From a bacterium (lineage in GTDB: Bacteria > Bacteroidota > Ignavibacteria > Kapaibacteriales > Kapaibacteriaceae), in contig JAWXBR010000009.1 in the NCBI GenBank assembly GCA_034440235.1, positions 88,440-152,439 on the forward strand: a DNA stretch of 64,000 nt, given 5' to 3'. This document shows, one piece after another, positions 3,001 to 64,000 of this stretch. Position 1 is the first letter of the stretch; each line of letters starts with the position of its first letter. The notes beneath the pieces are model-generated. The model was given only the letters and a program-made list of their open reading frames with translations, was not told the origin of the DNA and ran no database searches. The position numbers were made by a program, and so were the translations under genes.

Positions 3001-5171
3001 GGCGCGCGTATGGGCGGATTCGCATTTAGAACCTCGAGATAACCAGGCAATACTGCAACAGCTAACGGCGCTGAGAAGTCAGCGCTGGTTTCAAACTGCG
3101 TCTGCAGTTTTGCTGTGCTCATGCCGCCTATAGACGACCCTGAACGATTGGCGCCACCCGAACGCATCGCAGATTTTTTTCCACCCAGGCGCGAGACGAG
3201 TCCCGCATTCATTGCCGTCTTCGAGCCCCTTACCTGAACCTTCGAAGCATTAGCTGGTTTCGCGTCGGGGTTCTCGCCGACATAGTCGAAGTACTTTCCG
3301 AGAAAGGCGCCAGCAAGAATGTTAAGCGTGAATTCGACATCTGGTGGCTTTGCGCTTGGCGAAACGAATTGGGTGAACTTGCTCCAATCGAGCAGACCTT
3401 CGATTGTGAACTTTCCTGGATGTCCCGAAGGCACGCTGAAGACAAGGCGCGAATCGTTTGCCATGACGGCATCAATTGGCGGGTCGAGCAGCGGCTCGTT
3501 GGGTCCTGAGGTAGGTGCACTTGCCGGAGGTTTGTCGTCGCTATTAATCCCTGGACCGTCAGTCTTTACCTTGTCTGGGTCGTTGACGTAATAAAATGCG
3601 CGCTCTGCAATGTGCTGCGGCTGAAAGTGGACAATGAGCTTACTGCCGCTGCCACTTGTCGTGAACGTGCCACCACCCTTGTTGATGGTCATGTTTACAA
3701 ACTCAAACGTCAGCACCAGCAAGTCTTCGGGACGTATTACGGTAATCTTCGGATTGCCAGCAAATTTTAACGTGCCGGCAAGTGCCCACTTGCCAAGCGA
3801 CTTCTTGATTTTGAAATCTTTTTTTGTGTCCTTCTGAAACGCACCTTGTATCTGCGACTGTTGGATTTTCATGTCCTGCTGCGGATCGAGCAGCAGTCCC
3901 ATCATATGGAAATGGGGCTTCGGCAAAGCCGAAGGGGCAACGTTCGAGACAAGCCAAGCGAGCTGCGCACCCTCGCCCATCTTCGTGGGCTCGGTTAATG
4001 CACCGTCTACAGGTATGTGATATTTGAGAAGACCCGGTGCAACGATGAAGCGGTCGATAACACCATTGCGACTGACAATTTCTAAAGGTGGGATGCCTTC
4101 GCGTTCGCCGACAAGCATGCCAACGCCTGCTGCGTTAATCCACTTCGGAGACGCTGCATAACGTGCAACGAATGCTTCATGCAGGCCTTCGTCTGTACGG
4201 GTCCACGCATAACGCACGTCGCGGACAGCAAACGTTGCGTCGTGACGTTTTGCAGAAAACGTCACGCCCCCTTCGAGAGCCCCTTCAAGAATTCCTGCAG
4301 TGCGTCCGTCTGATGCTGTCTCGAGTGTGCACGAATCGAATGCATCATCGCGAACAGACATCGTTAGTGCAGCGTCGTTGAGGAAACTGAGTGGTATTGG
4401 CCAGCGTGCTTCATTGCCTCGACGAATGCAGAGGAAGGTGCTACGTGGTGCGGCTGGACGTAATGCAGAGAGTGTGTCGGACTTAGGAAGATGTACTACG
4501 ATACTGCTGCCGTGCAACGACAGTGCATCGATCTGCGCAGCGAAGAGTGTTAGGCTGTTTGAGGGCGAGAACGACAGCGTCCATGTTGGACGAAAACACA
4601 CTTCTGTGCCTGCGGGAACTACTGCATGAAACGATGTAGCATCGAGGGCAACAGCTTTTTTTGTTGCACGTACTTCGGTCGTCTTCTCAAGAAGCCAGGC
4701 GACGAACGGAACGTTGAATTGTGTGTTTGTTGCAACAATCGTGCAGTGTAACGCGGGTGTAGAGCCACCATGAATCTCTGCCGTGAAGTCAGCACTGATA
4801 CGGGTACCGGGGTACATCGCATTACGCAGAGCAACGTGCGTGATGTTGTCTTGTGTCGATGTGGTAAGCTCTGGGTGCCCGTCGAACATTCGCGGATCGA
4901 TTACCCATCGTTCTACACCTGCAACGCTAAATGCAATGCGATTGCCGCGACGCGACAATCGATACGATGCCGTGATTGCATGTTCGACAGAGCGTACTAG
5001 TGGCGCAGCAAACATCGTTGCCGCTCCAGCGAGACCTATTGCCTTTCGGCGCGAGAGGCCGTTTGCAGAGATCTGAGATGGGGCTGAGCTTGATTGAGTC
5101 CGCGGCACATCGGGGACTCTAGACGAATGAAGCTTTTTAAGTGCTTCGACCGATAAGGCGATTCTTTTCAT
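39..5171 (-). CDS. Very large (1710 aa) hypothetical secreted protein with twin-arginine (Tat) signal and central coiled-coil
   Basis: Complete ORF. N-terminus SRRKAIGLAGAATMFAAPLVRSVEHA resembles a Tat signal. A long K/A/E-rich heptad-like stretch (KAKADALKAQAQALANDVATEVKDAKDALIAEVNKVKDEI...) is present. The C-terminal region is Gly/hydrophobic beta-rich. No family recognised. Confidence 0.5.
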   Translation of the reverse strand: MKRIALSVEALKKLHSSRVPDVPRTQSSSAPSQISANGLSRRKAIGLAGAATMFAAPLVRSVEHAITASYRLSRRGNRIAFSVAGVERWVIDPRMFDGHPELTTSTQDNITHVALRNAMYPGTRISADFTAEIHGGSTPALHCTIVATNTQFNVPFVAWLLEKTTEVRATKKAVALDATSFHAVVPAGTEVCFRPTWTLSFSPSNSLTLFAAQIDALSLHGSSIVVHLPKSDTLSALRPAAPRSTFLCIRRGNEARWPIPLSFLNDAALTMSVRDDAFDSCTLETASDGRTAGILEGALEGGVTFSAKRHDATFAVRDVRYAWTRTDEGLHEAFVARYAASPKWINAAGVGMLVGEREGIPPLEIVSRNGVIDRFIVAPGLLKYHIPVDGALTEPTKMGEGAQLAWLVSNVAPSALPKPHFHMMGLLLDPQQDMKIQQSQIQGAFQKDTKKDFKIKKSLGKWALAGTLKFAGNPKITVIRPEDLLVLTFEFVNMTINKGGGTFTTSGSGSKLIVHFQPQHIAERAFYYVNDPDKVKTDGPGINSDDKPPASAPTSGPNEPLLDPPIDAVMANDSRLVFSVPSGHPGKFTIEGLLDWSKFTQFVSPSAKPPDVEFTLNILAGAFLGKYFDYVGENPDAKPANASKVQVRGSKTAMNAGLVSRLGGKKSAMRSGGANRSGSSIGGMSTAKLQTQFETSADFSAPLAVAVLPGYLEVLNANPPIRAPKEDETAIEYPYRLILSPNKYAAWAHSDVPVMNPTNRRAELWHTRLGVKHASGVVNEEAAYFRTMRAIWSPDVDTSYSMSAKFKERPFRTSINRRDRHEIVQLTSNFGMKGTDDAPLDVKRFMMTSLGAWADMIGAWDPDGALDNLDVEQWIQRGTQGRDHFVRVCYKGFLFPFGHRATLVKETERKFRRTPRGDMAAYLMQRMYIILRQPVREFPADGLTGMEYQGRGNPFRKVLITTRTTPNLLLPVALQGPPMSSNSFWPRFQPPGGPQDVKWQCVGTDWENNEVNFTMPMAFLANTDACTANTQNWINNTYKTENARRKVDMGGQHIAYAPSTKKGDTSLPTDSISWLGYWAETNDSKTPHFFPKMERSSVRVEKIQELIGTDSSRDIEFFSKYLEHAFAKGPDFPKGVVPNINDVKNPSQIFAKLVSQISMNFGSASDKAGGLAAPSIDVSGLSRLLGTVPGNLNDIANTATAIGNFDPMTYFADLLNAKILGDITLKDVLDFVQGVMNNIDKMPGLDKKDDFGVKGNVDDIKAKADALKAQAQALANDVATEVKDAKDALIAEVNKVKDEIQGYINDGKKIVEDRINEWKKRVENKANELKNEVDKALKPLIDAGNEAAKKYEAVASELEKLKQGLSLVYEWQTEIKSSPGNILVPLNPGTTDKDKKAILYLKASFVKKLNLDPPEVTVYGSLSNFVINLIGDGAAQFLIIKFNRLAVTSVLGSKTDVDPDIEGVEFAGPLTFVNKLKDLIPSGGSAGGVGFSFDLQVLPSGITAELTIGLPNVTVGVFSLQNMAFIMRLTIPFDGRPFSAYFAFCTRENPFRLTVMVFAGGGFFGIEINPSGVIMLEAAFEFGGNFAFDIGIASGGASVMAGVYYKLETKTVDGKDVKQSTLEAYFRLSGNLSILGLIHVTLTFELKLTWQDNGKLWGTATIEVEIEILFFSFSVGVTVERQLKGSDSDPTFKDMLPMPAMWTEYCNSFA

Positions 5172-5313: not shown

Positions 5314-8274
5314 ATGCTTCGTGTGCGCCAAATCATTGTCGCCATTGCGATCTTCATCATTGCGTCAATCCTTAAGGCGCAAGGACCAGAGCTCGTCGAC
5401 ATTAGGCTCACTCAGCCCCCTCCCAATCAGTTGCGCATTGCTGACTTGTGGAAGGTCGAACTGAATAACCGCTCTGGACGCCCAGTTCGGGTGTATTTGC
5501 ATGGCACTGCAGAAGAGACATCAATCCCCGACGGGATTATTGCCGATGCACGTACGAAGATTATTACTGTACCGCCAGGACGTTCGGTTGTCACTGGTAA
5601 TGACGTCCAGCCGATTACAGTAGATCAGTCGAATAACAAGTACCGCGACGCTCTTTTACGAACCGGCTCTGTGCCTTCTGGTGCGTACACGATTTGTTGC
5701 GAGGTAATTAGCGAAGAGACCGACCAAGTTATTGGACGCGATTGCAAGTTCGTGACGGTAGAGCGCATGACGATTCCGATTCTGATTGCGCCGCCTGACG
5801 AAAGTGTTGTCATGGATAAATTCCCGACGTTCTCGTGGCTAAGCGGGTCTCCACCAGCAAGCGGATTTCGTCCGACCTACCGCTTGAAAATCGTCGAGGT
5901 GTTTAACAGCCAGTCGCCATACAGCGCTATGGCTGCGAATCCAGCGTGGTTCATTCGCGAAAACATTCCCAACAACGTGTTCCTGTATCCCGTTTCAAGC
6001 AGATCGTTTGAAGTGAAACGCAAGTATGCATGGATGATAACGGCGTTTAATGCTACAGACGGACGTGTTCCCATGGGCGAGAGCGAGATCTGGTGGTTTA
6101 CCTACAACCCCGAAACCGATAGTCAAGACGATACGACCGATACGACCGATGGCGATCAGGCTGATAAACGAGGCACGGGTGATACAACTGCGGGCGGAGG
6201 CGTAAAGACAAGCAAATCGAGCCTAACGGCAGACATGCCTTGTGGCGGAGAGAACTGGGACTTCGAACTTGGTACGCTTGGTTGCTGGACCGTTGATGGT
6301 GAGGCGTTTGTTGATGATCCTGTTCTCGATGATCACCCCGTGCTTGGCCAACTTGGTCATCATGCCAAATACTGGGTAACATCTCTTGGACCGACAAATG
6401 GCGATGGTGCTGTAGGTGCAATGCTGTCAGAAGAATTTCAGATCAAGACCAGCACTATTGGATTTTTGTGTGGTGGCATGCTGTCTGGTGATGCAGGTGT
6501 TGAACTGCTTGTCGAAAAACTTGCAAAAGACACATTCAAGCTTCCATCGCGACGTATTGCTTTGTCGACGAAAGAATTCTATGTCGCTCATACAACCAAC
6601 GCCGATCTAGGTGCGGCATCTAAAGCAAAAAGTGGTGGCACATCAGATAGACTCGATCCGGTTGAGTGGGACGTCACTAAATTTTTGAATCGCGTTGCCT
6701 TTATCATAGTGCGCGATTCAACGAAGGTCGGGCACGTTAACGTCGATTACTTCCGATTCTACGATCGTGAGAAAGACGACTCGGTTAAACTGCCGGTGCT
6801 TGTTATGTCAGCCGGAGAAAACCATTCGCTCGCAGCAACTCCACAAGAGAAGCCAAAGAAAAATATTCGCGACATGCTTTCCAGTGATGTAGGCATTTAC
6901 AGAGGAGGCGGAGCACAGTTCACCGACCTTAATGTGGTGAACGATGTGTCGACAAACACGAAGCGATTCACTTCTGCTGTTGTAGACGAGAACCTGAAGC
7001 TCAATCCGTCGTTCAAAGCCTCTATAAACGCCGAGGACTTTCCCAAGTTCACAGAAGCGAACATTCAGAGTAACAAAAAAGATGGTCCCGAACTGTATGA
7101 AATGAATGCTTCCGAAGCAGCAAAGTATAGCAAGGCCGGACTTGGTCTTTCTGCGCTCAACCCTAAAAACATCGTGTGGGGATGGGGAGATAATCTTAGG
7201 CGCGCCGTTGGTAAAGATTATGGTGGCGTAGTGCCCGAGCCGATGAAACTAGAAAAGGTTAAAGAAGTGAAGGCACTTGCAGCGGGCATGGACCACTCCT
7301 TCGCGGTCACGAAGGCGGGTGCTATTCTCGGCTGGGGCTTCAATGACTACTGGCAGCTCGGTACCGATGATCGTGTACAGAAAAACGACCCTGTCGATCT
7401 AAAAGTCGCAAACATCATTCAAGTCGCAACCGGGTCACGCCACGCACTCGCACTCAACGACAAGGGTCAAGTATATGTGTGGGGGTATAACCGCACCTGG
7501 GAATGCGGAACGTGGTTGAACGTGATATTCGACAACACGACGGGACAGATAACGGCAAACCTGCCAATGACAAAGCCTACGCTGCATTATGCGTTGAATG
7601 GCATTGCAGCAGTTGCTGCGGGACATTCGCATTCGGTAGCACTGTCGTTTACTGGTGCAGTGTTCTGTTGGGGAGCTAACAATTACGGACAGTGTGGTGT
7701 AGACCCCGACGACTTATTTGCAATTGGATGGCCAACACCTGTAGTAGTGCCAGGAGCTGTTGAAGCGAACCTATCCTTCCTTAAACGACAGGGCTTTACC
7801 TCCGTGTCGGCTGGAGACTACCATACGATGGCCCTTGATATCGACGGCCGAGTGTGGGCATGGGGAGGTAATGCAAGCGGACAGCTTGGCGATGGCACGA
7901 ATAAAGACCGCCCAGCACCTGGATTGGTAAAGGGGCTGCCCCGTGTCAAGGCTATTGCCGCTGGCAGTACATTCTCACTAGCGCTCGATTCAGCAGGCAA
8001 TCTGTGGGCATGGGGCAATAATGCTCTTGGACAATTGGGCGACGGTACGCGAGTTGGGCGAATAGAACCTGTGAAGGTGTCTCGTCTAGACGCAGTAGCT
8101 GGTGTTGTTGCGGGTGGAGCACATGGTATGGCCGTTCGTGCAGACGGTGGACTTTGGACATGGGGAACGAATGAATACGGACAGCTCGGAGAGGGTCCGA
8201 TAACAAATCTTACTCCTGTGCCCCTTGATCCGCCCCTTGGCCCATTTCGTGTCGAAAAACTTGCATCGCCTTAG
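5314..8274 (+). CDS. Secreted RCC1-repeat (beta-propeller) protein
   Basis: The ATG at 5314 gives MLRVRQIIVAIAIFIIASILKAQG, a signal peptide. The track start at 5281 is GTG. The C-terminal half holds about 7 RCC1-like repeats (WGWG.N..GQLG...V.AG..HS.AL...G.V..WG.N..GQLG.G). Confidence 0.7.
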   Translation: MLRVRQIIVAIAIFIIASILKAQGPELVDIRLTQPPPNQLRIADLWKVELNNRSGRPVRVYLHGTAEETSIPDGIIADARTKIITVPPGRSVVTGNDVQPITVDQSNNKYRDALLRTGSVPSGAYTICCEVISEETDQVIGRDCKFVTVERMTIPILIAPPDESVVMDKFPTFSWLSGSPPASGFRPTYRLKIVEVFNSQSPYSAMAANPAWFIRENIPNNVFLYPVSSRSFEVKRKYAWMITAFNATDGRVPMGESEIWWFTYNPETDSQDDTTDTTDGDQADKRGTGDTTAGGGVKTSKSSLTADMPCGGENWDFELGTLGCWTVDGEAFVDDPVLDDHPVLGQLGHHAKYWVTSLGPTNGDGAVGAMLSEEFQIKTSTIGFLCGGMLSGDAGVELLVEKLAKDTFKLPSRRIALSTKEFYVAHTTNADLGAASKAKSGGTSDRLDPVEWDVTKFLNRVAFIIVRDSTKVGHVNVDYFRFYDREKDDSVKLPVLVMSAGENHSLAATPQEKPKKNIRDMLSSDVGIYRGGGAQFTDLNVVNDVSTNTKRFTSAVVDENLKLNPSFKASINAEDFPKFTEANIQSNKKDGPELYEMNASEAAKYSKAGLGLSALNPKNIVWGWGDNLRRAVGKDYGGVVPEPMKLEKVKEVKALAAGMDHSFAVTKAGAILGWGFNDYWQLGTDDRVQKNDPVDLKVANIIQVATGSRHALALNDKGQVYVWGYNRTWECGTWLNVIFDNTTGQITANLPMTKPTLHYALNGIAAVAAGHSHSVALSFTGAVFCWGANNYGQCGVDPDDLFAIGWPTPVVVPGAVEANLSFLKRQGFTSVSAGDYHTMALDIDGRVWAWGGNASGQLGDGTNKDRPAPGLVKGLPRVKAIAAGSTFSLALDSAGNLWAWGNNALGQLGDGTRVGRIEPVKVSRLDAVAGVVAGGAHGMAVRADGGLWTWGTNEYGQLGEGPITNLTPVPLDPPLGPFRVEKLASP

Positions 8275-8275
8275 T

Positions 8276-8353
8276 GTTGAAATCGGAAAGTCTCTTTAAC
8301 AGTTGAAATCACAGAGTCGCCTGAACGGTTGAAATCGCAAAGTCGCCTTCACT
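8276..8353. repeat. Three tandem 26-bp direct repeats (GTTGAAATCNNNAAGTCNCC...) in the promoter region of the 8367 gene
   Basis: Units at 8276-8301, 8302-8327 and 8328-8353 each begin GTTGAAATC and share an AGTC core. They lie between the RCC1 gene stop and the next gene start. Confidence 0.6.
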
Positions 8354-8366
8354 TTCGCAAAAGCAA

Positions 8367-10343
8367 ATGCGCCTTGTTCTGTTGTGCATCTCAGTAAGCG
8401 TAACACTATGTCTCTCGCATAGTATTGCGCAGCAGTCTCCTACGCCACAAACTCCATCAACAAGTTCACCGTGGTTTGTGTTTGGTTCGCAGAATGGTGA
8501 TGCCCCAGTAATGCTCATGGGCAGCTATCGCATGATCGGACAGACAGCGAATCGCCAAGGCACCTTCCAGGAAAAGCCGCCCGATTTATGGCGGATGGAA
8601 ATTAATCCTACCATTTCGTTGTACGGAATTCCGCTTACCGCAAATCTTTTGCTGTCGTCAGAGCAAGACGGACTACGTCAGGACATCAACGCATTTTCAA
8701 TTACGCTCGACCCAGAAGCTGTAAAGCGTATTGTTTCGGCACGCGCATATCGCGCTCTGAATGAATTCGCACGATCGGAGGGCGGCGAACTACTCGACAA
8801 GTACGACGATGTGCAGGATTCGCTTGCGAAGTACAACCCCGATCAGCTCAAACAACTCGAACAGTACAAGCAAGTAGAAAAACTTCGTGATGTTGCAAAC
8901 GGCGACCTAACTGGTTACACCGACCTCATGCAACAGATGGGTTTTATGTCGGATGTCGAAGCAGTGATGGCTGCACTTCCAACGATTGGGGTTGGTGCGC
9001 TCTTCCCAACCTTTACACCCCTCACTGTGAATGGTGTCCGTTTGGACGGCGGCTCTGCAGAATGGAATCCGGGCTTTTTTTACGTGCACGTAGCGGGTGG
9101 TAAAACACAACGTCCGTTGCTCAGACTCGACACTGCACGTGTAGACTCGGGTGTGTTTGCGAACTTCGATAACTCGGCATTCGGACGAATGATGTATGCC
9201 GGACGTATCGGCATCGGACGGCGTGATGGTGCACACTTCATACTTAATGGGGTGTATACAATCGACGACAGGCAAAGCATAACATTCTCTGACACAAACT
9301 CGTCGCTTACTCCGCAGAAAAACATGCTCATGGGTCTCGATTTTAAGACAGAGCTCATACCAGGCATGTGGACGTTGGAAGGTGAGGGTGCTGTAACACT
9401 TACGGTAGGCGACCAGAACGCACCAAAGTTTAGTACAAAGGCAGTACCCGATATTCTGCTTGGGCTTGTCGACTCATCGGCATCGTCGTATTTCGATTGG
9501 GCGGTGACTGGTTCAACCCAACTCGACATTCGATCTACGGGCACACGTTTTCGCGCGTCAACACGAAGGATTGGTCCGGGTTACCGAGCGCTTGGCGTTC
9601 CCAACCTGCGCACCGACGTCTTTCGTTATGATGCACGCATCGATCAGTCGTTCTGGCAAAGGCAGTTCAGTGTCGGACTTTTCTATCGTCGCGACACCGA
9701 CAACCTTCTTCCGTGGAAACGCAGTACTACAACGATTACGAGTCTTGGTGCTACACTTGGTCTTAACATTCGCAAGTATCCGTACCTGCGACTTTCGTAT
9801 GCACCATACGCTCAGATTAACGACGACCCAGAGCCCAACCTCCAGATCGATAACAACATCACGGTTCTTACGGCTGCTTCGGGCTACAGCTATCGTATTG
9901 GCGATCTTTCGGCAAACACAACGCTTAATGCGGGAAGTCAGTCTAGCAAAACAATCAATGGAATTGCTGATTACGCAGTTCTTACGCTCAATGGTAATCA
10001 GAGCATCAGTTTTACATTTCCGCTTACGTTGTCGGCAGGTATGGGCTATATATCACAAAAGTCTACAGGTTCGCCAGACAACACCATTATTACCGTAGAT
10101 GGGTCTGTGAACTACGGCATTTTCGAGTTCATGAGTGTGAGTGGCGGCCTTACTCTCGCATTCGACGACACGTTTGGTACGCGCACCGGCTACTTCTTCG
10201 GCTTGGGTGCAACACTTGGCGAGTTCGCCAACGTCGACATTCGTGCAGAGCGCAATCTCTTTAACGAGCGTCTAAACCCGCCGGTTTACGGTGGCACCTA
10301 CCAAGAGACAATCTTCAGGGCCTCGATATCGAGGTCTTGGTAG
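8367..10343 (+). CDS. Hypothetical secreted / outer-membrane beta-rich protein
   Basis: Signal peptide MRLVLLCISVSVTLCLSHSIAQQ. Beta-rich composition with a C-terminal aromatic residue (..SRSW). Same strand, immediately downstream of the RCC1 protein. Confidence 0.45.
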   Translation: MRLVLLCISVSVTLCLSHSIAQQSPTPQTPSTSSPWFVFGSQNGDAPVMLMGSYRMIGQTANRQGTFQEKPPDLWRMEINPTISLYGIPLTANLLLSSEQDGLRQDINAFSITLDPEAVKRIVSARAYRALNEFARSEGGELLDKYDDVQDSLAKYNPDQLKQLEQYKQVEKLRDVANGDLTGYTDLMQQMGFMSDVEAVMAALPTIGVGALFPTFTPLTVNGVRLDGGSAEWNPGFFYVHVAGGKTQRPLLRLDTARVDSGVFANFDNSAFGRMMYAGRIGIGRRDGAHFILNGVYTIDDRQSITFSDTNSSLTPQKNMLMGLDFKTELIPGMWTLEGEGAVTLTVGDQNAPKFSTKAVPDILLGLVDSSASSYFDWAVTGSTQLDIRSTGTRFRASTRRIGPGYRALGVPNLRTDVFRYDARIDQSFWQRQFSVGLFYRRDTDNLLPWKRSTTTITSLGATLGLNIRKYPYLRLSYAPYAQINDDPEPNLQIDNNITVLTAASGYSYRIGDLSANTTLNAGSQSSKTINGIADYAVLTLNGNQSISFTFPLTLSAGMGYISQKSTGSPDNTIITVDGSVNYGIFEFMSVSGGLTLAFDDTFGTRTGYFFGLGATLGEFANVDIRAERNLFNERLNPPVYGGTYQETIFRASISRSW

Positions 10344-54072: not shown

Positions 54073-56322
54073 TTACGCTTTTTCTTCTTCGTTCGCTTCC
54101 GGAGGTGCTGCATCGCCCGCAGGCTCTGCAGGTGCTTCGGCTGGAGTCTCTGCCGCAGGTTCTGTGGTTTCAACCGCTTCGGAAGTTGCAGCAACTGGCT
54201 CTTCGGCAGCAGGCGCTTCAGCTACAGGTGCTTCAACTTCTGCTACTGGTGCTTCGGCTTCTGCTACTGGCGCTTCGGCTTCTGCCACTGGTGCTTCGGC
54301 TTCGGCAGCAGGCGCTTCGGCTTCGGCAGCTGGCGCTTCGGCTTCGGCAGCTGGTGCTTCTGCGATTGGGTCTGGAGTAATGGCAGGGAAGTATTCGTTT
54401 GTTGTGTCGTACGGTTCTGAGTCTTCGAGGTCTTCGATGCTCGTTAGCGAAGATGCAGATCCGTCGGCGTTGTATTTGTCTGCGTTCGGAACAGGGTGGT
54501 TGACGTTGTACTTGGCAACTTCTTCGTCCGACTGTGTACGGAGGAATTCTACTGCCGAGAGAACGATCTTCTTTTGTTCTTTGTCAAACTCTACAACCTT
54601 GAGCGGAAGTACTTGATCTGGTACGAAGTAGTCGGCGATAACGCGAACAGGGGCGAAGGAGAGTTGTGACACGGGGACGAAGCCGTCGACGCCTTGTGGC
54701 AGTTCGACGATAACACCCTTATCGATAATGCGAACAATCTTGCCTTCTGTTTCTGTGCCTACACCGAATTCTGTTTCGAAGATGTCCCATGGGTTCTCAG
54801 AGATCTGCTTGTGTCCGAGCGAAATACGACGATGCTCGTTGTCTACCGCAAGCACGATTACCGGAAGCTCATCACCCTTCTTCACGAATTCACCTGGATG
54901 ACGAATCTTCTTTGTCCACGACAGATCGCTGATGTGTACGAGGCCATCAACACCAGGCTCGAGTTCAACAAACACACCAAAGTTGGTGAGGTTGCGAACG
55001 ATACCCTTGTGTACAGAATCCATTGGGTACTTGGCCATCAGATCGTTCCATGGGTCTGGCTCGAGTTGCTTCATGCCAAGAGCGAGCTTGCGTTCGTTCT
55101 TATCGATGTTTAATACTGTTGCTTCGACAACCTGTCCGAGCGACACCACTTGTGATGGGTGCTTTACGTGTTGTGTCCATGACATTTCGCTGATGTGAAT
55201 CAAACCTTCTACGCCCTTTTCTATTTCGATGAAAGCGCCGTAGTCGGTAAGCGAAACAACCTTGCCCTTAACCTTCGAGTTGGTTTCGTACTTCTCGCCA
55301 ATCTGATCCCACGGATGCGAGGTCAGTTGTTTCATACCGAGCGAAATGCGCTTGCGGTTTTCATCGAAGTCGAGAACAACAACCTTGACCTGCTGATCGA
55401 GCTGAACGATTTCACTTGGATGTGTAACACGTCCCCATGAAAGGTCAGTGATGTGCACGAGTCCATCAACACCACCTAGGTCTACGAACACGCCGAAGTC
55501 AGAGATAGCCTTAACGGTACCTTCAAGAACGAGTCCCTTTTCAAGGAGTCCGAGAATCTTGCCGCGTTGTTCGGTGAGTTGTTCTTCGAGAAGAACCTTG
55601 TGGCTGACGACAACATTTTCGCTTGGGTGATTAACCTTCACGACACGGACGTCGATTGTACGAGTAACCCATGCATCGAAATCGCGAACCGGACGCACAT
55701 CGATTTGTGAGCCTGGAAGGAATGCTTCGATACCGAGAAGATCAACAACCATACCGCCCTTAATGCGGCGAAGGATGCGAACAGGCACGACCTGTTGTGT
55801 GTCGTGCAACTTGAGAATGTCTTCCCAAGTTTTCATGAAGTCGGCACGACGGCGGCTGAGAATTAGGCGGCCTTCTGCGTCTTCAATTTTTTCGATGAAT
55901 ACATCGACCTGATCGCCGATGGTAAGCAACTCAGCGCCGACAAATTCTGCGCGAGGAACAACACCAAGGCTCTTAAAACCAATGTCTACTAAGATTTCGT
56001 CCTTTGTAACGGATACCACTTTACCGTGGACCATTTCATCGGCCTTGACCTTCGAGGTGTCTTTCGCATCGAACAACGCTTTGTAGGCGTCGTCGTCCAT
56101 CGTAACGCCATTATCCATGTCGCCCGCCAAAAGCGCAGCGAGTCCGGAGCGTTTACGAGCTACAGGTTTATCCTGATTTGATGCTGCCGAAACTGCCTCC
56201 ATAGTGACATCTTCTGTCACTACAGCCGTTGTTTCGTCTTGCGTGTCTACTGTTAGCTGATCCGACATGTATAGATCTACTCCATAATCACCGTAATGCG
56301 ATGCGCGGCCCTCCGCATCCAC
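54073..56322 (-). CDS. rpsA: 30S ribosomal protein S1 with Ala/Glu/Pro-rich repetitive C-terminal extension (start uncertain; possibly about 56100-56118)
   Basis: Multiple S1 domains (GKVVSV..., VVDLLGIEAFLPGSQID, ...GLVHISDLSW...). C-terminal (AEAPAAE/AEAPVAE)n tail from DNA tandem repeats at about 54228-54362. Confidence 0.85.
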   Translation of the reverse strand: MDAEGRASHYGDYGVDLYMSDQLTVDTQDETTAVVTEDVTMEAVSAASNQDKPVARKRSGLAALLAGDMDNGVTMDDDAYKALFDAKDTSKVKADEMVHGKVVSVTKDEILVDIGFKSLGVVPRAEFVGAELLTIGDQVDVFIEKIEDAEGRLILSRRRADFMKTWEDILKLHDTQQVVPVRILRRIKGGMVVDLLGIEAFLPGSQIDVRPVRDFDAWVTRTIDVRVVKVNHPSENVVVSHKVLLEEQLTEQRGKILGLLEKGLVLEGTVKAISDFGVFVDLGGVDGLVHITDLSWGRVTHPSEIVQLDQQVKVVVLDFDENRKRISLGMKQLTSHPWDQIGEKYETNSKVKGKVVSLTDYGAFIEIEKGVEGLIHISEMSWTQHVKHPSQVVSLGQVVEATVLNIDKNERKLALGMKQLEPDPWNDLMAKYPMDSVHKGIVRNLTNFGVFVELEPGVDGLVHISDLSWTKKIRHPGEFVKKGDELPVIVLAVDNEHRRISLGHKQISENPWDIFETEFGVGTETEGKIVRIIDKGVIVELPQGVDGFVPVSQLSFAPVRVIADYFVPDQVLPLKVVEFDKEQKKIVLSAVEFLRTQSDEEVAKYNVNHPVPNADKYNADGSASSLTSIEDLEDSEPYDTTNEYFPAITPDPIAEAPAAEAEAPAAEAEAPAAEAEAPVAEAEAPVAEAEAPVAEVEAPVAEAPAAEEPVAATSEAVETTEPAAETPAEAPAEPAGDAAPPEANEEEKA

Positions 56323-56970: not shown

Positions 56971-57047
56971 GCGCCCGTAGCTCAACTGGATAGAGCAACA
57001 GCCTTCTAAGCTGTAGGTCGCTGGTTCGAGTCCAGCCGGGCGTACCA
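56971..57047 (+). tRNA. tRNA-Arg (anticodon TCT)
   Basis: Hand-folded cloverleaf. Acceptor GCGCCCG/CGGGCGU. D-arm GCUC-AACUGGAUA-GAGC. Anticodon stem ACAGC/GCUGU with loop CUUCUAA. T-arm GCUGG-UUCGAGU-CCAGC. Encoded CCA. Confidence 0.85.
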
Positions 57048-58616: not shown

Positions 58617-59000
58617 TTGCCTTACTGTACGTATCCTTTCCGACATCACTTAACTCGATACCCCTTAAGGTGCGTTCCCGAGCCTTTAATAATTCACATC
58701 ATGTCGCTTGGATGCTACCTCGTCATTGCCTGCGCCATGCCAGGAAACGCTTTCTCCTTGAGCTTTTACGCTTCCCTGACACACGCACACAGCGCATGGG
58801 GATCCACGTCGATCTCTCGGGCAATACTGACCTTTGTTCGCGTGGGATTCTCTTCAACCAGTCGAACTGCTTCTCGCTTAAAGTCCCGTTCTACGGGGTG
58901 GCTCCTCTTCCTTCATGGTCGCCATCGGTTGGGATTACGTTTGCGGGATCCGTCACGCTTCAACCTTCTGTATTTTGTGAACTTACCTAAGGGACATACC

Positions 59001-60074
59001 ATGGCAAAGCGATCCGTGACTGAGGAACAGAAGGCAGCTGCGGAAGCACAAATCGACAAGAATCAAAAGGTCATTGATTATGATACGCGGGAGTATCCTG
59101 TGGAAGTCATCATCCAGAAGTATCTTAAGGACATTGAGAACGACAACAACGACTTCTTCATTCCCGATTACCAGCGTGAACATTCGTGGTCTGACGACCG
59201 ACAGTCGCGATTCATAGAATCCGTCTTGATGGGGTTGCCGATCCCGCTGCTATTTTTCGCCGACGTAGCAGGGCAGGAAGGTCGCGCGGAGATTGTCGAT
59301 GGCTCTCAAAGGGTTAGGACTCTGGCACGTTTTGTAAGCGGTGAACTGGAATTGACAGGGTTAGAGAGGCTAGACAAACTTAACGGGTTACGGTATCACG
59401 ATTTGTCCTTGACCCGGCAGCGTCGATTCGGCCGTCATACGCTTCGAATGATAGAATTGCGCGAGGGCGTCGACGAAGATGCCAGAAGGGACATCTTCAG
59501 TCGTATCAATACCGGGAGTCTAGTGCTAAATGATATGGAAGTGCGTTGGGGTACCGAGGATGGCCCATTTCTTCACTTCATTCGTGATTGCTCAAGGAAC
59601 CCACTATTCACGAATGCCGCTCCCTTGAGTCCAATGGCTGTAAAGCGTCGAGAACCACAGGAGTTCGTACTTCGCTTTTTCGCATATCTAAACAATTATA
59701 AAAAATTTGACCGGAGCGTGGTTGGATTCCTTAACGATTACTTGGATAGGGTGTCGAAACAATTTTCCGATGCTCAGAAGGTCGAGTTTGAAGAAGAGTG
59801 GTTGCAGATGCTGACCTTCGTGTCAGACCGTTTTCCATCCGGATTTGTGAAGGCAGACGGGCATGTCCGAACTCCACGAATTCGGTTTGAGGCTATATCG
59901 GTTGGAGTAGCACTTGCACTTCGAGAAAACCCCGAAACCATTCCTAATAATCTTGATTGGTTGAATTCAGAGACCTTCCTGTCACTGATGAGATCGGACG
60001 CAAGCAACTCACGGCCAAAGGTCATCAAGAGGATTGAATACGTTCGCGACAATGTGTTGGGGACGTACAAATGA
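59001..60074 (+). CDS. DUF262 (ParB/sulfiredoxin-like, GmrSD N-terminal-type) domain protein
   Basis: Start at the internal ATG (MAKRSV). DUF262 hallmarks: ...FFIPDYQREHSW... and ...EIVDGSQRVRTL. The stop overlaps the next ATG (ATGA). Confidence 0.7.
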   Translation: MAKRSVTEEQKAAAEAQIDKNQKVIDYDTREYPVEVIIQKYLKDIENDNNDFFIPDYQREHSWSDDRQSRFIESVLMGLPIPLLFFADVAGQEGRAEIVDGSQRVRTLARFVSGELELTGLERLDKLNGLRYHDLSLTRQRRFGRHTLRMIELREGVDEDARRDIFSRINTGSLVLNDMEVRWGTEDGPFLHFIRDCSRNPLFTNAAPLSPMAVKRREPQEFVLRFFAYLNNYKKFDRSVVGFLNDYLDRVSKQFSDAQKVEFEEEWLQMLTFVSDRFPSGFVKADGHVRTPRIRFEAISVGVALALRENPETIPNNLDWLNSETFLSLMRSDASNSRPKVIKRIEYVRDNVLGTYK

Positions 60075-60763
60075 ACGATGTACGTCAAGACTATGAAGAA
60101 CGCGTACAGGAAATACACGACTACCTTGCATTGATATACGAGTTGGAAATTGGGACTATCGACTTCATCATTCCTGCCAATGCCCAAAAGGCCTTTGACG
60201 ATAAACGTCGACGGAATCTACTGCGAACCTTCAAGGCAAGTACCTACCTGATGTTGTATAACCTGATGGAGTCTGCGGTTATCAGTGCCATTTGTGCGAT
60301 TTACGACGAAATGGAAACCCGAGGAGTCGATTTTGATGCTTGTAGATCAGAAATTCGAAAAATTGTACTTCAGAATTTGAAGAATCACCAACCTCAGACG
60401 ATAGTCGGTTCGCTGAACAAGGTCGCGTTGGACATCATAACCAAAACATATCAACGTTCCAAGATCGCATCGGGTAACGTCGACGCACAAAAAATCAGGG
60501 AAATCGCAACCGAGTATGGCATAAAACATCCTCGTGCTGATGGCTCCATGCTTGTGGCGGTCAAGAGGCAGAGACAAGACCTTGCTCATGGTGTCAAGTC
60601 CTTCGCGGACGTTGGTAGAGACACCACGGTCACAGAACTTGTAGAATTGACGAGACAGGTAACCGCCTACCTGACGCTGTTGATCGACAATGTGGCGGAG
60701 TACATCAACGACCAACAATATTTGTCGGTTAATGTCGCTAGTGCTTCCTTAACCGCAGTGTGA
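60071..60763 (+). CDS. HEPN-like putative RNase (recalled MAE_28990/MAE_18760-type partner of DUF262 proteins)
   Basis: 230-aa, alpha-helical-looking. Candidate HEPN Rx4H motif in ...KRQRQDLAHG... . Translationally coupled to the DUF262 gene. Confidence 0.5.
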   Translation: MNDVRQDYEERVQEIHDYLALIYELEIGTIDFIIPANAQKAFDDKRRRNLLRTFKASTYLMLYNLMESAVISAICAIYDEMETRGVDFDACRSEIRKIVLQNLKNHQPQTIVGSLNKVALDIITKTYQRSKIASGNVDAQKIREIATEYGIKHPRADGSMLVAVKRQRQDLAHGVKSFADVGRDTTVTELVELTRQVTAYLTLLIDNVAEYINDQQYLSVNVASASLTAV

Positions 60764-60789: not shown

Positions 60790-61083
60790 TCAGGCTTTCG
60801 GAACGGAGCATTCCCAGATAACGACGGTTCTCCAGCCAAGATCAGCAAGGGCTCTCAGCGCCCGAACGTCCCGAGCTTGATTTGCGTCGAATTTCTTTTG
60901 CCAGAATTCAGTACGAGATTTGGGAGTGATTGTCATGGCACAACCATGACGATGCCAGAAACAACCGTGGACGAAGATCACTGGCTTGTCCTTAGGCATG
61001 ACGATGTCCGGTGTACCCGGAACGTTTTTGTAATGAAGGTGGAATCTGAAACCAGCTTCGTGCGACGCGGTTCGCAATCTCAA
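60790..61083 (-). CDS. vsr: Very-short-patch repair endonuclease (Vsr), N-terminally short / TTG start
   Basis: ...TPELRLR...G.RF...PG.PDIV...VIFVHGCFWHRHGC...RTEFWQ.K...N..RD......GW.V..IWEC. There is no upstream in-frame ATG, and an in-frame stop lies just upstream. About 20 aa shorter than typical Vsr. Confidence 0.75.
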   Translation of the reverse strand: MRLRTASHEAGFRFHLHYKNVPGTPDIVMPKDKPVIFVHGCFWHRHGCAMTITPKSRTEFWQKKFDANQARDVRALRALADLGWRTVVIWECSVPKA

Positions 61084-61142
61084 TTCAGGTGTTGAATCTT
61101 AACTGCCGACACTGGCCATAATTCGGGACCGTGTTTGATGAT

Positions 61143-63146
61143 TTACTGATTCCACGATCCTGCTATTTGTTCAAGTAGGTCATCCAGTTTCTTCAACTTG
61201 GCATCTTCCTCAAGATAGTTCGAATACGATCGCAGCGCACCATTGATCAGCGCATCGTAGTGTACGATACGACTGCCGGGTGCAATTGATCGCATTGAAT
61301 CTTTGAGCCTTTCGGGGTTACTAAGCTCCTCATCAATGGGCTGACCGAGCACGAAGATCACCTCGATGTTCGGATTCGGAATATCATGATTGCCGACAAG
61401 AATTGTCCTTAGAGTATCGACATACCCACGACCCTGTACCTCAAGTTCGGTGAGTTTCATTTTACGGCCAGCCTTTTTCAGTTCAACGATGAGATGTTTA
61501 TCCGCGTAGGTCTTATACCGTATGTCCACCCTTCCAAGGCTCTGTTTTTTTGTAAGGCCATCAATTGTTATGCCCTTCTCTTTTAAACTCTTCTCGACTT
61601 GTTCGCTACCACTTGCCCGTTCCCACGAGGGATCCAGTAGCCATAGGTGATCGAACAAATGGTCACGAAGCGCACTTTCCTTTTGGTCCTCGTTAACTAA
61701 AGATTGAAGAGCACGAATGACTTCGATTCGCGATTTGACAATATCCCTATACAACGCTGCTTCGTAACTATCTCTGCTGTTGAACAAACGCAACAAACCT
61801 TGTGTGTCATCCAACATCGCGACGAAATCATCAACAGAACCTCGCAATTTCATACGTTCGAATGCAAGCACTCCGTATTTAAGTAGATCCTTTCTGTCTT
61901 CGTCCTTATCGAAATCCACGGAACCAAGTTTGCCCACCATTTTCAACGCGCTGTCCTGATGGCCTTCTGGAAGTTGCTCAAGCCATAATTTGAAGGTTGG
62001 ATTTAAAGCCTTCGTCTCAAGAACAGCATGTTTGCTCCTCCATTGGTTCCATTCAGCATCGACTTTGTTCAGCATTTCCTTCAGCAACTGGATAAGCTTG
62101 GTGTATCTCGGATCGTCCTCTTGAATACGTTGCCTATCACTTGTAGCGATGTCTTCATCATCATCCGTGTCCATGAAGTCAGCTTCGATCTGACCTGTGA
62201 GGTACTTTGTGAATATGCGGCCATCGTTCAGCTTATCAAGAATATTCTCGTGGAATAATCTGCCCCGAGAGAAGACAACGATACCATTGAGATTACCTGA
62301 GTCATCGTTATCCAGTTCCTTCGGTTTCTTTGCCGTACCAAGCCATCCGCGCAGTTCCCAGGTCTCATCCCAGTCGGCATTTTTGTTCTTGAGCTTTCCT
62401 CGTTCCTTGACGTTGGGAGTTGACGCGTCTTCAATAACGGTATCCCCCAAAATCCATAAGAACTGGGCCGTACGAAGGTCCTCGCGATCCTCTACTGTAA
62501 TTGGAATATCGTTAACGTAGACCATGAAATCATGCACATGACCCAGAATCGAAAATCGCCTTGCCAGACGCTTGCGTAAGGCAACGATTCCCCTTCCTAG
62601 TCGTTCGCGCTTAATATGCGTCAATGTGATTCGGGTACCACTATCAATATCGACAGCATGATCGGGTAGTGACACGGGATGGTATTTTTCGTTAGCCTTT
62701 GCGCTTTTCCTGATACCATCAATAGTCATTCTCAGGCCATGTGAAACATCTTGCTTCCTAGTCTGAACTTCAATCTCCTCTGCGATCGAAAAGAGTGACA
62801 GCTTACCCAGCCCTTTCCGGCCCATTACAGGCCTACCCTTAGCAGTGACCCTGCCTGTTGCCGTATCAAGGTCCCGCCGTCGATAGCCAACTCGAAGGTA
62901 CTTACCGTTCATATCCATTATCGACATTCCGATACCGTTATCGGTGATTACGATCCTCTTGCCTTCCGCGCGGATCTCATCCACCAAAATTCTAACCTCG
63001 GTGGCATCAGCATCCCAAGCGTTTGCCACTGCTTCGGTGATCACTGCGGCTACGTTGCTATAGAGATTGATTCCTAAATGATCTAGCACGGTGAGGTCGA
63101 CCGACATCTCGTACAGGCTGTGATCAGCGTCTATGATGTTGTCCAT
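61143..63146 (-). CDS. GHKL-family ATPase (MutL/MORC/Hsp90-like Bergerat fold) fused to a C-terminal PD-(D/E)XK-like putative nuclease domain
   Basis: N-box ITEAVANAWDA, G1 ITDNGIGM, G2 GRKGLGKLS. C-terminal ...LGRVDIRYKTYADKHLIVELKKAG fits the D...(E)xK restriction-endonuclease-like pattern. Its start overlaps the dcm stop by about 23 nt. Confidence 0.65.
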   Translation of the reverse strand: MDNIIDADHSLYEMSVDLTVLDHLGINLYSNVAAVITEAVANAWDADATEVRILVDEIRAEGKRIVITDNGIGMSIMDMNGKYLRVGYRRRDLDTATGRVTAKGRPVMGRKGLGKLSLFSIAEEIEVQTRKQDVSHGLRMTIDGIRKSAKANEKYHPVSLPDHAVDIDSGTRITLTHIKRERLGRGIVALRKRLARRFSILGHVHDFMVYVNDIPITVEDREDLRTAQFLWILGDTVIEDASTPNVKERGKLKNKNADWDETWELRGWLGTAKKPKELDNDDSGNLNGIVVFSRGRLFHENILDKLNDGRIFTKYLTGQIEADFMDTDDDEDIATSDRQRIQEDDPRYTKLIQLLKEMLNKVDAEWNQWRSKHAVLETKALNPTFKLWLEQLPEGHQDSALKMVGKLGSVDFDKDEDRKDLLKYGVLAFERMKLRGSVDDFVAMLDDTQGLLRLFNSRDSYEAALYRDIVKSRIEVIRALQSLVNEDQKESALRDHLFDHLWLLDPSWERASGSEQVEKSLKEKGITIDGLTKKQSLGRVDIRYKTYADKHLIVELKKAGRKMKLTELEVQGRGYVDTLRTILVGNHDIPNPNIEVIFVLGQPIDEELSNPERLKDSMRSIAPGSRIVHYDALINGALRSYSNYLEEDAKLKKLDDLLEQIAGSWNQ

Positions 63147-64000
63147 TTGCTAGCTGACCTAAATGATGTACGATGCTTTTACCGATGACCTCACCAAGTT
63201 TCACTGGTACTGCATTACCGATCATCCTTCCGATCGTCGTCTTGTTCAATCTTTGCGAGGGTGCGACAAATTTATAATGTCTTGGGAAGCTCTGTAGTAT
63301 TGCGCCTTCCCTGAAGGATAAGGCCCGATCCTGTTCTGGATGACCGAAGCGGCCATTACCGAACCCGAAAAACTGCGTAGTGATCGTTGGTGACGGTTGG
63401 TCCCAACTCATGCGCCCATAGACACTGGAATACGTTTTGCCACTAGGTTTTCTATGACAATCCGAGCGAAGTTCCTCAGGCCAATCTCTCCATGTACCTC
63501 CCGGCTTGGACGCCTTCAAGCGGGTCATGTTGATGGAACTGAGTGCACACGTTTGATGGAGATTGTCCTTCGGATCAATGTCTCCTGCTTCGAGCTTCGG
63601 TAACGACCTGATAGCTTCGGAAACAGTTCGAACTTTCAGAGTACGCGGAGGAGGCAGAAGTTCGACAGTACCATGCCTAGATGCCAAAAGTACAAGTCTC
63701 CGGCGCGTTTGAGGAATCCCATATTCAGCGCAGTTGACTTCATGGATCGTGGGTTCCTTGAACCCACATCCTGAAAGTGTTTTTATGAATTTCAGAAAGA
63801 CTTCCTGCTCCTTCAGGCGAGGGACGTTTTCCATGGTGACGATGTCAGGAAGCGTATCAACAATCAACTGGCCGAAGACATCAAGGAGATTCCAACGATC
63901 GTCCCTGCTATCGCTCCTCCCTTGCATGTAAGTCGAAAATGGCTGGCACGGAGCACAACCGGCTAAGACACGATACTTAGCTTTCCCCCAAGCATTTAGA
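63124..64000 (-). CDS. dcm: DNA (cytosine-5)-methyltransferase, 5'-partial (continues beyond window end)
   Basis: Reverse-strand translation reads ...KYRVLAGCAPCQPFSTYMQGRSDSRDDRWNLL...TMENVPRL... (motif IV PCQ, motif VI ENV). The frame stays open to position 64000. Confidence 0.85.
   Translation of the reverse strand, partial: LNAWGKAKYRVLAGCAPCQPFSTYMQGRSDSRDDRWNLLDVFGQLIVDTLPDIVTMENVPRLKEQEVFLKFIKTLSGCGFKEPTIHEVNCAEYGIPQTRRRLVLLASRHGTVELLPPPRTLKVRTVSEAIRSLPKLEAGDIDPKDNLHQTCALSSINMTRLKASKPGGTWRDWPEELRSDCHRKPSGKTYSSVYGRMSWDQPSPTITTQFFGFGNGRFGHPEQDRALSFREGAILQSFPRHYKFVAPSQRLNKTTIGRMIGNAVPVKLGEVIGKSIVHHLGQLANGQHHRR

Follow-up and report, generated by a model that had tools for sequence, protein, structure and literature searches.

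A DUF262-HEPN gene pair of a catalogued operon class lies beside an HgiDII-type restriction-modification operon in a Kapaibacteriaceae contig

Operons that combine a HEPN protein of the MAE_28990 family, a ParB-like DUF262 protein and a DNA methylase were described computationally by Anantharaman et al. (2013, Biol Direct 8:15; PMC3710099), and apart from that analysis PF18737 or HEPN_MAE_28990 was mentioned nowhere in the literature searched. A two-gene module of this kind was analyzed in a 64,000-nucleotide (nt) stretch of a Kapaibacteriaceae contig, hereafter the window (GenBank assembly GCA_034440235.1, contig JAWXBR010000009.1, positions 88,440 to 152,439). The pair is made up of ORF1, which encodes a DUF262 protein, and ORF2, which encodes a HEPN protein. 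The locus is a member of the already catalogued operon class, an ordinary instance of a family known so far by computation, and its novelty is low. Features shared with the 2013 class were the same HEPN family (PF18737) with an Rx4-6H motif, the same ParB-like DUF262 gene upstream in the operon, and an association with a methylase and restriction-modification (R-M) genes. The window differs from that class in the position of its methylase, which is outside the operon of the pair, 2.4 kb away and convergent, and inside a methylase-restriction enzyme-Vsr (M-R-Vsr) operon.

Defence by a DUF262 and HEPN pair was already validated in 2022 with PD-T4-2, a two-gene anti-phage system from Escherichia coli ECOR65 (Vassallo et al., 2022; PMC9519451). 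PD-T4-2 protects E. coli, and HHpred assigned its B protein to HEPN_RiboL-PSP (97.8%) and HEPN_MAE_28990 (PF18737; 96.9%) (PMC9519451 supplement). The window pair shares the two-gene architecture, and ORF1 was homologous to the A protein over nearly its full length (PADLOC PD-T4-2_A, PDLC04027; E = 1.5e-30, profile positions 55–354 of 363). The differences were as follows: PD-T4-2 has no linked methylase; ORF1 scored higher against NsnA than against PD-T4-2_A; PD-T4-2_B is shorter (a 168-position profile versus the 230 amino acids (aa) of ORF2); and the PADLOC PD-T4-2_B model did not match ORF2 or its relatives, apart from one marginal match (0.009). ORF2 itself had no PADLOC match at E ≤ 1. 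Strict PD-T4-2 membership was rejected on this B-component model, and the window pair thus represents a related but distinct family. The link of ORF2 to PD-T4-2_B exists only at the level of the Pfam family, through the HHpred result of the PD-T4-2 authors.

PD-lambda-5, listed as “ParB/HEPN, methyltransferase,” is a validated system with broad protection that has been described as a compacted prophage combination of R-M and abortive infection (Abi) (Vassallo et al., 2022). It has the same three functional parts (ParB-like, HEPN and methyltransferase) and the same proposed R-M plus Abi logic, but its ParB/HEPN is listed as one protein, whereas these are separate proteins in the window. PD-lambda-5 was rejected, as no PADLOC model of this system was among the matches for ORF1, ORF2, the window methylase or the phage-borne relatives of the module. 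Among these known systems ORF1 most resembles NsnA of Menshen (NsnABC), in which ParB-DUF262 is followed by a C-terminal helical “ParBDB” domain (PMC12065111); Menshen also follows a similar logic, a sensor coupled to an RNase effector. Unlike Menshen, the window has a single HEPN protein directly after the sensor. No NsnB ABC/AAA_15 ATPase and no NsnC (inPIN plus nuclease) occurred at the locus or in the gene table of a second assembly (L001), and Menshen was rejected as well. The Menshen paper raised the possibility that ParB-DUF262 proteins found with orphan methylases are directed against genomes lacking modification (PMC12065111).

The N-terminal DUF262 NTPase domain and its DGxQR motif are also found in GmrSD, BrxU and SspE. 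These proteins carry a DUF1524 His-Me nuclease, whereas in the window the effector is a separate HEPN protein. A preliminary description of the window, made from the sequence alone, had proposed exactly this replacement. Pfam found no DUF1524 in ORF1, so a HEPN effector encoded by its own gene takes the place of the GmrSD nuclease; ORF2 likewise had no DUF1524 by Pfam. GmrSD was rejected on the same ground. In addition, the methylase linkage of DUF262-HEPN loci argues for a trigger of opposite polarity.

Residues 43–181 of ORF1 matched PF03235, GmrSD_N (DUF262), with E = 3.1e-25 (Pfam). A PDYQR motif (P55–R59) was located at nt 59163–59177 and the DGSQR (D100–R104) of a VDGSQR motif at nt 59298–59312. 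Altogether, 3197 homologues of ORF1 were found at E ≤ 1e-3, the best being 65–73% identical, and the invariant residues among homologues were P55-D-Y-Q-R59, W63, D100, G101, Q103 and R104. The PADLOC NsnA model matched ORF1 at full length (E = 3.5e-58; aa 9–349 against profile positions 27–376 of 385). The SspE, HEC-05/06 and Type II restriction enzyme (REase) models of PADLOC reached ORF1 through the N-terminal DUF262 region only, with the SspE and HEC-05/06 matches spanning approximately the first 100 residues. An AlphaFold (AF2) model of ORF1 (predicted local distance difference test, pLDDT, 79.7) had two domains, an alpha/beta N-terminal domain and a helical C-terminal domain (aa ~178–357). 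Its best match in the PDB was SspE (probability 0.97), followed by ParB CTPases and sulfiredoxin (Srx); a sequence search of the PDB with ORF1 gave a single weak DUF262 match (E = 0.009). As modelled, ORF1 is a ParB/Srx-fold DUF262 protein of NTPase type with an NsnA-like architecture, and its helical C-terminal domain is presumably DNA-binding.

GmrSD_N was the only Pfam match in ORF1: no HNH, PD-(D/E)xK or other recognized nuclease domain was found, and no nucleotidyltransferase (MNT) domain, so that ORF1 does not qualify as the partner in a HEPN-MNT pair. NCBIfam had no model for ORF1 or ORF2. The ORF1 frame is open upstream to position 58617, 128 codons before the ATG at 59001 (58617–59000), and a public annotation (L001) has a protein of 445 aa, whereas NCBI and all homologues give 357 aa. 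The ATG at 59001 is the start in all ORF1 homologues, with M1 present in at least 90% of the aligned sequences, and the 445-aa call looks like a mis-annotated start codon.

ORF2 matched PF18737, HEPN_MAE_28990, over profile positions 6–211 of 211 (Pfam; E = 1.5e-22). Its Rx4H motif, RQDLAH (R168–H173), was located at nt 60572–60589, and both R168 and H173 were invariant in 28 of 28 homologues. Residues Y63, N64, L65, E67, G135 and N136 were also invariant across these 28 sequences. The AF2 model of ORF2 was all-alpha (pLDDT 88.6; predicted template modelling score, pTM, 0.84). The HEPN assignment comes from membership in the curated family PF18737 together with the invariant Rx4H motif, as opposed to an independent fold match to solved structures, and the invariant site predicts that ORF2 is an RNase. 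Homologues of ORF2 are named “MAE_28990/MAE_18760 family HEPN-like nuclease” in RefSeq. A profile built from these homologues recovered 1770 cluster representatives at 50% identity (E ≤ 1e-3), 1356 of them with E ≤ 1e-10. Homologue numbers of this order place both ORFs well outside chance. The preliminary description had identified a 357-aa DUF262 protein with a DGSQR motif, overlapping by ATGA a 230-aa protein with a candidate Rx4H motif of the MAE_28990 type. Both assignments are borne out by the sequence and by the Pfam matches.

Loci carrying the pair were fetched with an alignment of the HEPN protein from metagenomes, genomes, plasmids and viral contigs, yielding 88 non-redundant loci. 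Upstream partners were counted in the 73 loci with at least 400 nt of upstream sequence, and methylase linkage in the 37 fully flanked loci, which had at least 1.1 kb on both sides. A search of genome contigs with the single ORF1 sequence returned five loci only, the patterns being too specific; the HEPN-alignment scans of metagenome and viral contigs were far richer. In 72 of the 73 loci, the gene immediately preceding HEPN encoded a DUF262 protein. The two genes overlapped by 4 nt in 36 of these 72 loci, and most of the others were spaced by 0–6 nt. The association of MAE_28990-type genes with DUF262 genes, to which the preliminary description had pointed, held across loci and agrees with Table 1 of Anantharaman et al. 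(PMC3710099); a lack of conservation as a unit, named in the preliminary description as a sign against the module, was not seen.

An orthologous C5 cytosine methylase of one specific lineage was directly adjacent to the DUF262-HEPN pair in 25 of the 37 fully flanked loci. The methylase was upstream, co-directional and often overlapping in 13 loci, and immediately downstream and convergent in 12 loci. One locus, the window, had the methylase 2.4 kb downstream. The remaining 11 loci contained no methylase, and in these the pair lay between housekeeping genes, e.g., ClpB, aconitase, IleRS and ArgRS. The methylases linked to the pair scored 400–450 bits against the dcm of the window, compared with approximately 77 bits (~1e-18) for a C5 methylase unrelated to them at the same locus. 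The full convergent triad was present in most of 34 viral contigs, and a methylase also adjoined the pair in Moraxella phages, in a P2-like coliphage (next to gene A) and on the Klebsiella plasmid NZ_CP069825. DUF262/HEPN/methylase triads are already annotated in RefSeq, the Klebsiella plasmid being one example.

When 131 flanking proteins were scanned in bulk against Pfam, Vsr was the only recurrent extra neighbor, occurring eight times, with overlapping Vsr-fold families adding more; the remaining proteins were heterogeneous. Vsr is the usual companion of 5-methylcytosine (m5C) methylases. The usual unit is a triad of DUF262, HEPN and one C5-methylase lineage, with or without Vsr.

Pairwise identities of the three proteins were correlated across loci. 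For DUF262 and HEPN the correlation was r = 0.74, rising to 0.84 in methylase-positive loci; for DUF262 and methylase it was 0.77, and for HEPN and methylase 0.79. None of 999 permutations in a Mantel test reached the observed correlations. HEPN was the fastest evolving member (mean identity 0.45), followed by the methylase (0.59) and DUF262 (0.60). In its behavior the module resembles an R-M cassette that is both compact and mobile.

Two sets of loci showed the triad in other settings. In GCA_039810745.1 and related contigs (L004–L007; 2660–12565), a methylase-DUF262-HEPN triad interrupted a Type I R-M operon between the hsdS and hsdR genes, and every gene junction was an overlap, an example of one defence module embedded in another. 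Escherichia phage P2_4B2 (NC_049387; L144) encoded a DUF262 protein (gp44), a MAE_28990 HEPN protein (gp43) and a C5 methylase (gp41) at positions 140–3041. The gp41 protein was short (234 aa) and covered only the N-terminal half of the Pfam methylase profile. These genes (gp41–gp44) adjoined replication gene A, at the P2 accessory-gene hotspot.

The operon facing the pair in the window, given in the preliminary description as dcm/vsr, is a complete HgiDII-type Type II R-M system made up of a methylase, a GHKL restriction enzyme and a vsr broken by a stop codon in frame. The 667-aa protein had an N-terminal HATPase_c_3 domain (Pfam; E = 1.1e-18), matched the PADLOC model REase_II PDLC03419 (E = 1.6e-105), and had homologues at 57–58% identity named “BbrUII/HgiDII family restriction enzyme.” R.HgiDII carries an N-terminal GHKL domain (PMC2441816), and M.HgiDII is a characterized m5C methylase with the target GTCGAC (PMC5867850). 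The GHKL enzyme, the M.HgiDII-like m5C methylase and Vsr are thus the features in common with HgiDII/BbrUII systems, whereas the in-frame stop in vsr and the convergence of a DUF262-HEPN pair on the operon set the window apart. The methylase gene overlaps the restriction-enzyme gene and encodes 370 aa at full length in L001, with all catalytic motifs intact (FCGAGG, PCQ, ENV, QTRRR and GNAVP).

The vsr gene is interrupted by an in-frame TAA at 61099–61101, after a conserved N-terminal motif (...TRSRIMASVGS*DSTPE...). This leaves an open, N-truncated ORF of 97 aa at 60790–61083, and the Pfam Vsr match begins at profile position 26. The same base was found at the stop in L001. The read-through translation aligned over residues 1–118 with an intact Vsr from a Bradyrhizobiaceae metagenome-assembled genome (L105) at 61% identity. 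The window vsr has probably become a pseudogene, while the methylase appears to be active. The Bradyrhizobiaceae genome carried the same M-R-Vsr operon with no DUF262-HEPN pair, and the identities of the window proteins to their counterparts there were 72% for the methylase, 63% for the restriction enzyme and 61% for Vsr. Plasmid homologues of the restriction enzyme also adjoined a cytosine methylase, with or without Vsr.

Other settings of the enzyme were found in four metagenome contigs (L106–L109; gene at 7001–8980). There, close homologues of the GHKL restriction enzyme (59% identity) belonged to DISARM-like operons containing an SNF2 helicase, an Eco57I/MmeI-type methylase, a helicase, MZB/DUF1998 and PLD, and were not beside a C5 methylase.

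GTCGAC, the target of M.HgiDII, is a candidate target of the M.HgiDII-like window methylase. Avoidance of GTCGAC as an R-M footprint was not detected in the window, where 46 sites occurred in 64 kb (observed/expected 1.10). Three GTCGAC sites (59469, 60207 and 60479) fell inside ORF1 and ORF2 against approximately 1.3 expected, which is not statistically remarkable.

Methylases linked to DUF262-HEPN and methylases linked to HgiDII-type enzymes formed one interleaved subfamily, 47–57% identical to the methylase of the window. The window methylase was 52–57% identical to triad-linked methylases and 25% identical to an unrelated C5 methylase. This interleaving indicates that one methylase chassis can be combined with a classical restriction enzyme or, alternatively, with DUF262-HEPN and, because the lineage otherwise partners the HgiDII-type GHKL enzyme, that DUF262-HEPN sits in the “R” position of an R-M system. 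Judged from these comparisons, the dcm gene that neighbors the pair in the window is not incidental and belongs to the cognate methylase lineage of DUF262-HEPN.

A tree of DUF262 sequences revealed that gene order was clade-specific, with three arrangements: methylase-upstream (22 loci), convergent-methylase (16 loci) and methylase-less (8 confirmed loci, mostly monophyletic). The window ORF1 nested in the methylase-upstream clade, in which all 22 other members have a methylase upstream; the window is the sole member without one, and an integrase gene is found in that position. A search for a methylase remnant between the integrase and ORF1 gave non-significant matches only (2.2-kb search space). 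The window was also the only locus in the tree flanked by an M-R-Vsr operon and, among all DUF262-HEPN loci examined, the only one with the GHKL restriction enzyme. The five-gene composite of pair and M-R-Vsr operon was absent from the loci of the three nearest restriction-enzyme homologues and from every other DUF262-HEPN locus examined. The window pair probably lost its own upstream methylase, with the same-lineage methylase of the neighboring operon now providing self-protection.

The linkage and co-divergence of the pair with a C5-methylase lineage that also serves a Type II enzyme point to an R-M logic in which the trigger would be the absence of a mark. A hybrid of R-M and abortive infection is proposed, in which the DUF262 NTPase reads DNA lacking the methylase mark and activates the HEPN RNase; we consider this proposal about evenly poised between right and wrong. 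The M.HgiDII-like methylase would mark host DNA, and the DUF262 protein, acting as sensor, would bind incoming DNA without that mark. Binding or hydrolysis of a nucleoside triphosphate by the DUF262 protein would then release or activate its HEPN partner, which would cleave RNA and halt the infected cell. The proposal is in line with the 2013 account of these operons (PMC3710099) and with the view, offered in the Menshen paper, of DUF262 proteins acting on unmodified genomes (PMC12065111). In the window, one methylase would license two effectors, the DNA-cutting restriction enzyme and the RNA-cutting HEPN protein. A more specific version is held only tentatively, as something that may well not be so. 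It makes DUF262-HEPN an “RNA-cutting restriction arm” that reads an absent m5C mark (possibly at GTCGAC), answers with HEPN RNase activity in place of DNA cutting, and could in evolution be exchanged for the HgiDII GHKL enzyme on a shared methylase chassis, with the window methylase licensing both effectors and the pair relying on the methylase of its neighbor.

Several observations weigh against the hybrid. For this family, RNase and NTPase activity, the formation of a complex and the dependence on methylation are so far predictions. No cloned methylase is needed for PD-T4-2 to act in E. coli K-12 (PMC9519451). The 11 fully flanked loci with no adjacent methylase, mostly of one DUF262 clade, and an E. 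coli IncF plasmid that carries the DUF262-HEPN pair alone indicate that a DUF262-HEPN pair can occur with no methylase linked to it. The co-divergence of the three genes could stem in part from shared host phylogeny. Finally, the window methylase belongs by descent to the neighboring M-R-Vsr operon, so that functional sharing with the pair is deduced from the improbability of a chance adjacency.

The same methylase-free cases bear on a Type IV-like explanation, the form in which the preliminary description had read the pair. Here DUF262 would sense foreign modified DNA (e.g., hypermodified cytosines) in the manner of GmrSD, BrxU and SspE and fire the HEPN RNase, and the nearby methylase would be unrelated. 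Characterized DUF262 domains are coupled to modified-DNA recognition (review, PMC10952713), SspE was the best structural match of ORF1, PD-T4-2 was selected on T4, a phage with modified DNA, and has no methylase, and a methylase-less clade of DUF262-HEPN exists. The window pair, however, comes from a clade that is always linked to a methylase. One C5-methylase lineage is strongly linked to the pair in either orientation and co-diverges with it, a Type II restriction enzyme draws on this lineage too, and a sensor of m5C type would be self-toxic beside its own C5 methylase. A GmrSD-like sensor of modified DNA is therefore disfavored and is less likely than the hybrid of R-M and abortive infection; we regard it as unlikely, though the best placed of the alternatives.

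Somewhat less probable again is an orthodox R-M system in which ORF1 is itself the restriction DNase, a ParB-like nuclease acting at unmethylated sites, and the HEPN protein is a regulator, a second-line Abi toxin or a specificity subunit. The pair does occupy the R position beside a methylase, Anantharaman et al. name the partner “ParB nuclease” (PMC3710099), and the PADLOC Type II REase model was matched through DUF262 (1.7e-08 for ORF1, down to 1.7e-16 for the homologue at locus L008). Yet ORF1 had no recognized nuclease domain, the domain in characterized DUF262 proteins is an NTPase with the nuclease as a separate domain (PMC10952713), and the invariance of the HEPN Rx4H motif indicates selection as a catalytic site.

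Chance accumulation would require that a methylase-less DUF262-HEPN pair and an HgiDII-type M-R-Vsr operon merely came to rest in the same tRNA-linked island. Defence genes do cluster, the three M-R-Vsr proteins of the window are coherent by descent in their identities to the Bradyrhizobiaceae operon, the restriction enzyme occurred in no other DUF262-HEPN locus, and three of its close homologues had no DUF262-HEPN nearby. Against this, the neighboring methylase is of the exact lineage normally carried with DUF262-HEPN, the window pair is the only one in its clade without a methylase of its own, and none of the 11 methylase-less loci (0/11) had such a methylase within its flanks. Coincidence is thus considered improbable. 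Slightly more improbable still is a toxin-antitoxin or addiction function, in which the DUF262 protein restrains a HEPN toxin and the pair serves mainly to keep the integrative island, or the R-M genes beside it, stable: HEPN toxins are common in two-gene toxin-antitoxin modules (PMC3710099), the two genes are tightly coupled in translation and the module rides on mobile elements (tRNA island, plasmids and prophages), but the partner is a conserved 357-aa NTPase-type protein of DNA-binding-type architecture instead of a small labile antitoxin or MNT, PD-T4-2, a relative, protects its native strain from phage, and the methylase linkage would be left unexplained.

The pairing of one methylase lineage with either a restriction enzyme or DUF262-HEPN, together with the co-divergence of the three genes, suggests that some DUF262 sensors may read absent methylation and answer with RNA cleavage. 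If the hybrid of R-M and abortive infection is correct, the two forms of defence are linked mechanistically, which would contribute to an account of PD-T4-2, PD-lambda-5 and those Menshen loci that are associated with a methylase. The window offers a natural “shared methylase” configuration and a possible test case.

The features of the locus are collected in Table 1.

Table 1. Features of the DUF262-HEPN locus and its surroundings in the window (positions in nt from the first base of the window).
Feature	Position	Strand	Evidence
tRNA-Arg, anticodon TCT	56971–57047	+	ARAGORN
Tyrosine recombinase/integrase, 462 aa	57228–58616	+	Pfam PF00589 (E = 5.1e-08); gene table of second assembly (L001)
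ORF1, DUF262 protein, 357 aa	59001–60074	+	Pfam, PADLOC, AF2 model
ATGA, overlap of ORF1 stop and ORF2 start	60071–60074	+	Sequence
ORF2, MAE_28990-family HEPN protein, predicted RNase effector, 230 aa	60071–60763	+	Pfam PF18737
vsr, interrupted by in-frame TAA	60790–61155	-	Pfam Vsr (E = 1.3e-16)
BbrUII/HgiDII-family Type II restriction enzyme, N-terminal GHKL ATPase, 667 aa	61143–63146	-	Pfam and PADLOC
C5 cytosine DNA methyltransferase, M.HgiDII-like, cut by window end	63124–64000	-	Pfam DNA_methylase (E = 4.7e-49)

The DUF262-HEPN pair converges tail-to-tail with the operon of methylase, restriction enzyme and pseudo-vsr. The integrase gene starts 180 nt 3′ of tRNA-Arg(TCT), the probable integration site of the island. 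The preliminary description had placed the pair in a tRNA-Arg island beside a dcm/vsr operon; the tRNA-Arg, integrase, Vsr and Dcm genes are all present, whereas that account of the operon left out the 667-aa GHKL restriction enzyme and the in-frame stop in vsr. No copy of the tRNA-Arg 3′ end that could mark attR was found within 13 kb of L001, nor a convincing direct repeat, and a promoter and terminator scan of the locus gave nothing above shuffled controls. In L001, the gene immediately preceding the methylase gene, likewise on the minus strand, encodes a 137-aa HTH_3/XRE-type protein (7520–7933; approximately 64552–64965 in window numbering), which could be the controller (C) protein of the R-M operon. 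Elsewhere in the window, a 749-aa homologue of ribosomal protein S1 (54073–56322, minus strand) carries a long low-complexity tail of EAPAAEAEAPVAEAE-type repeats, which is unrelated to the DUF262-HEPN finding.

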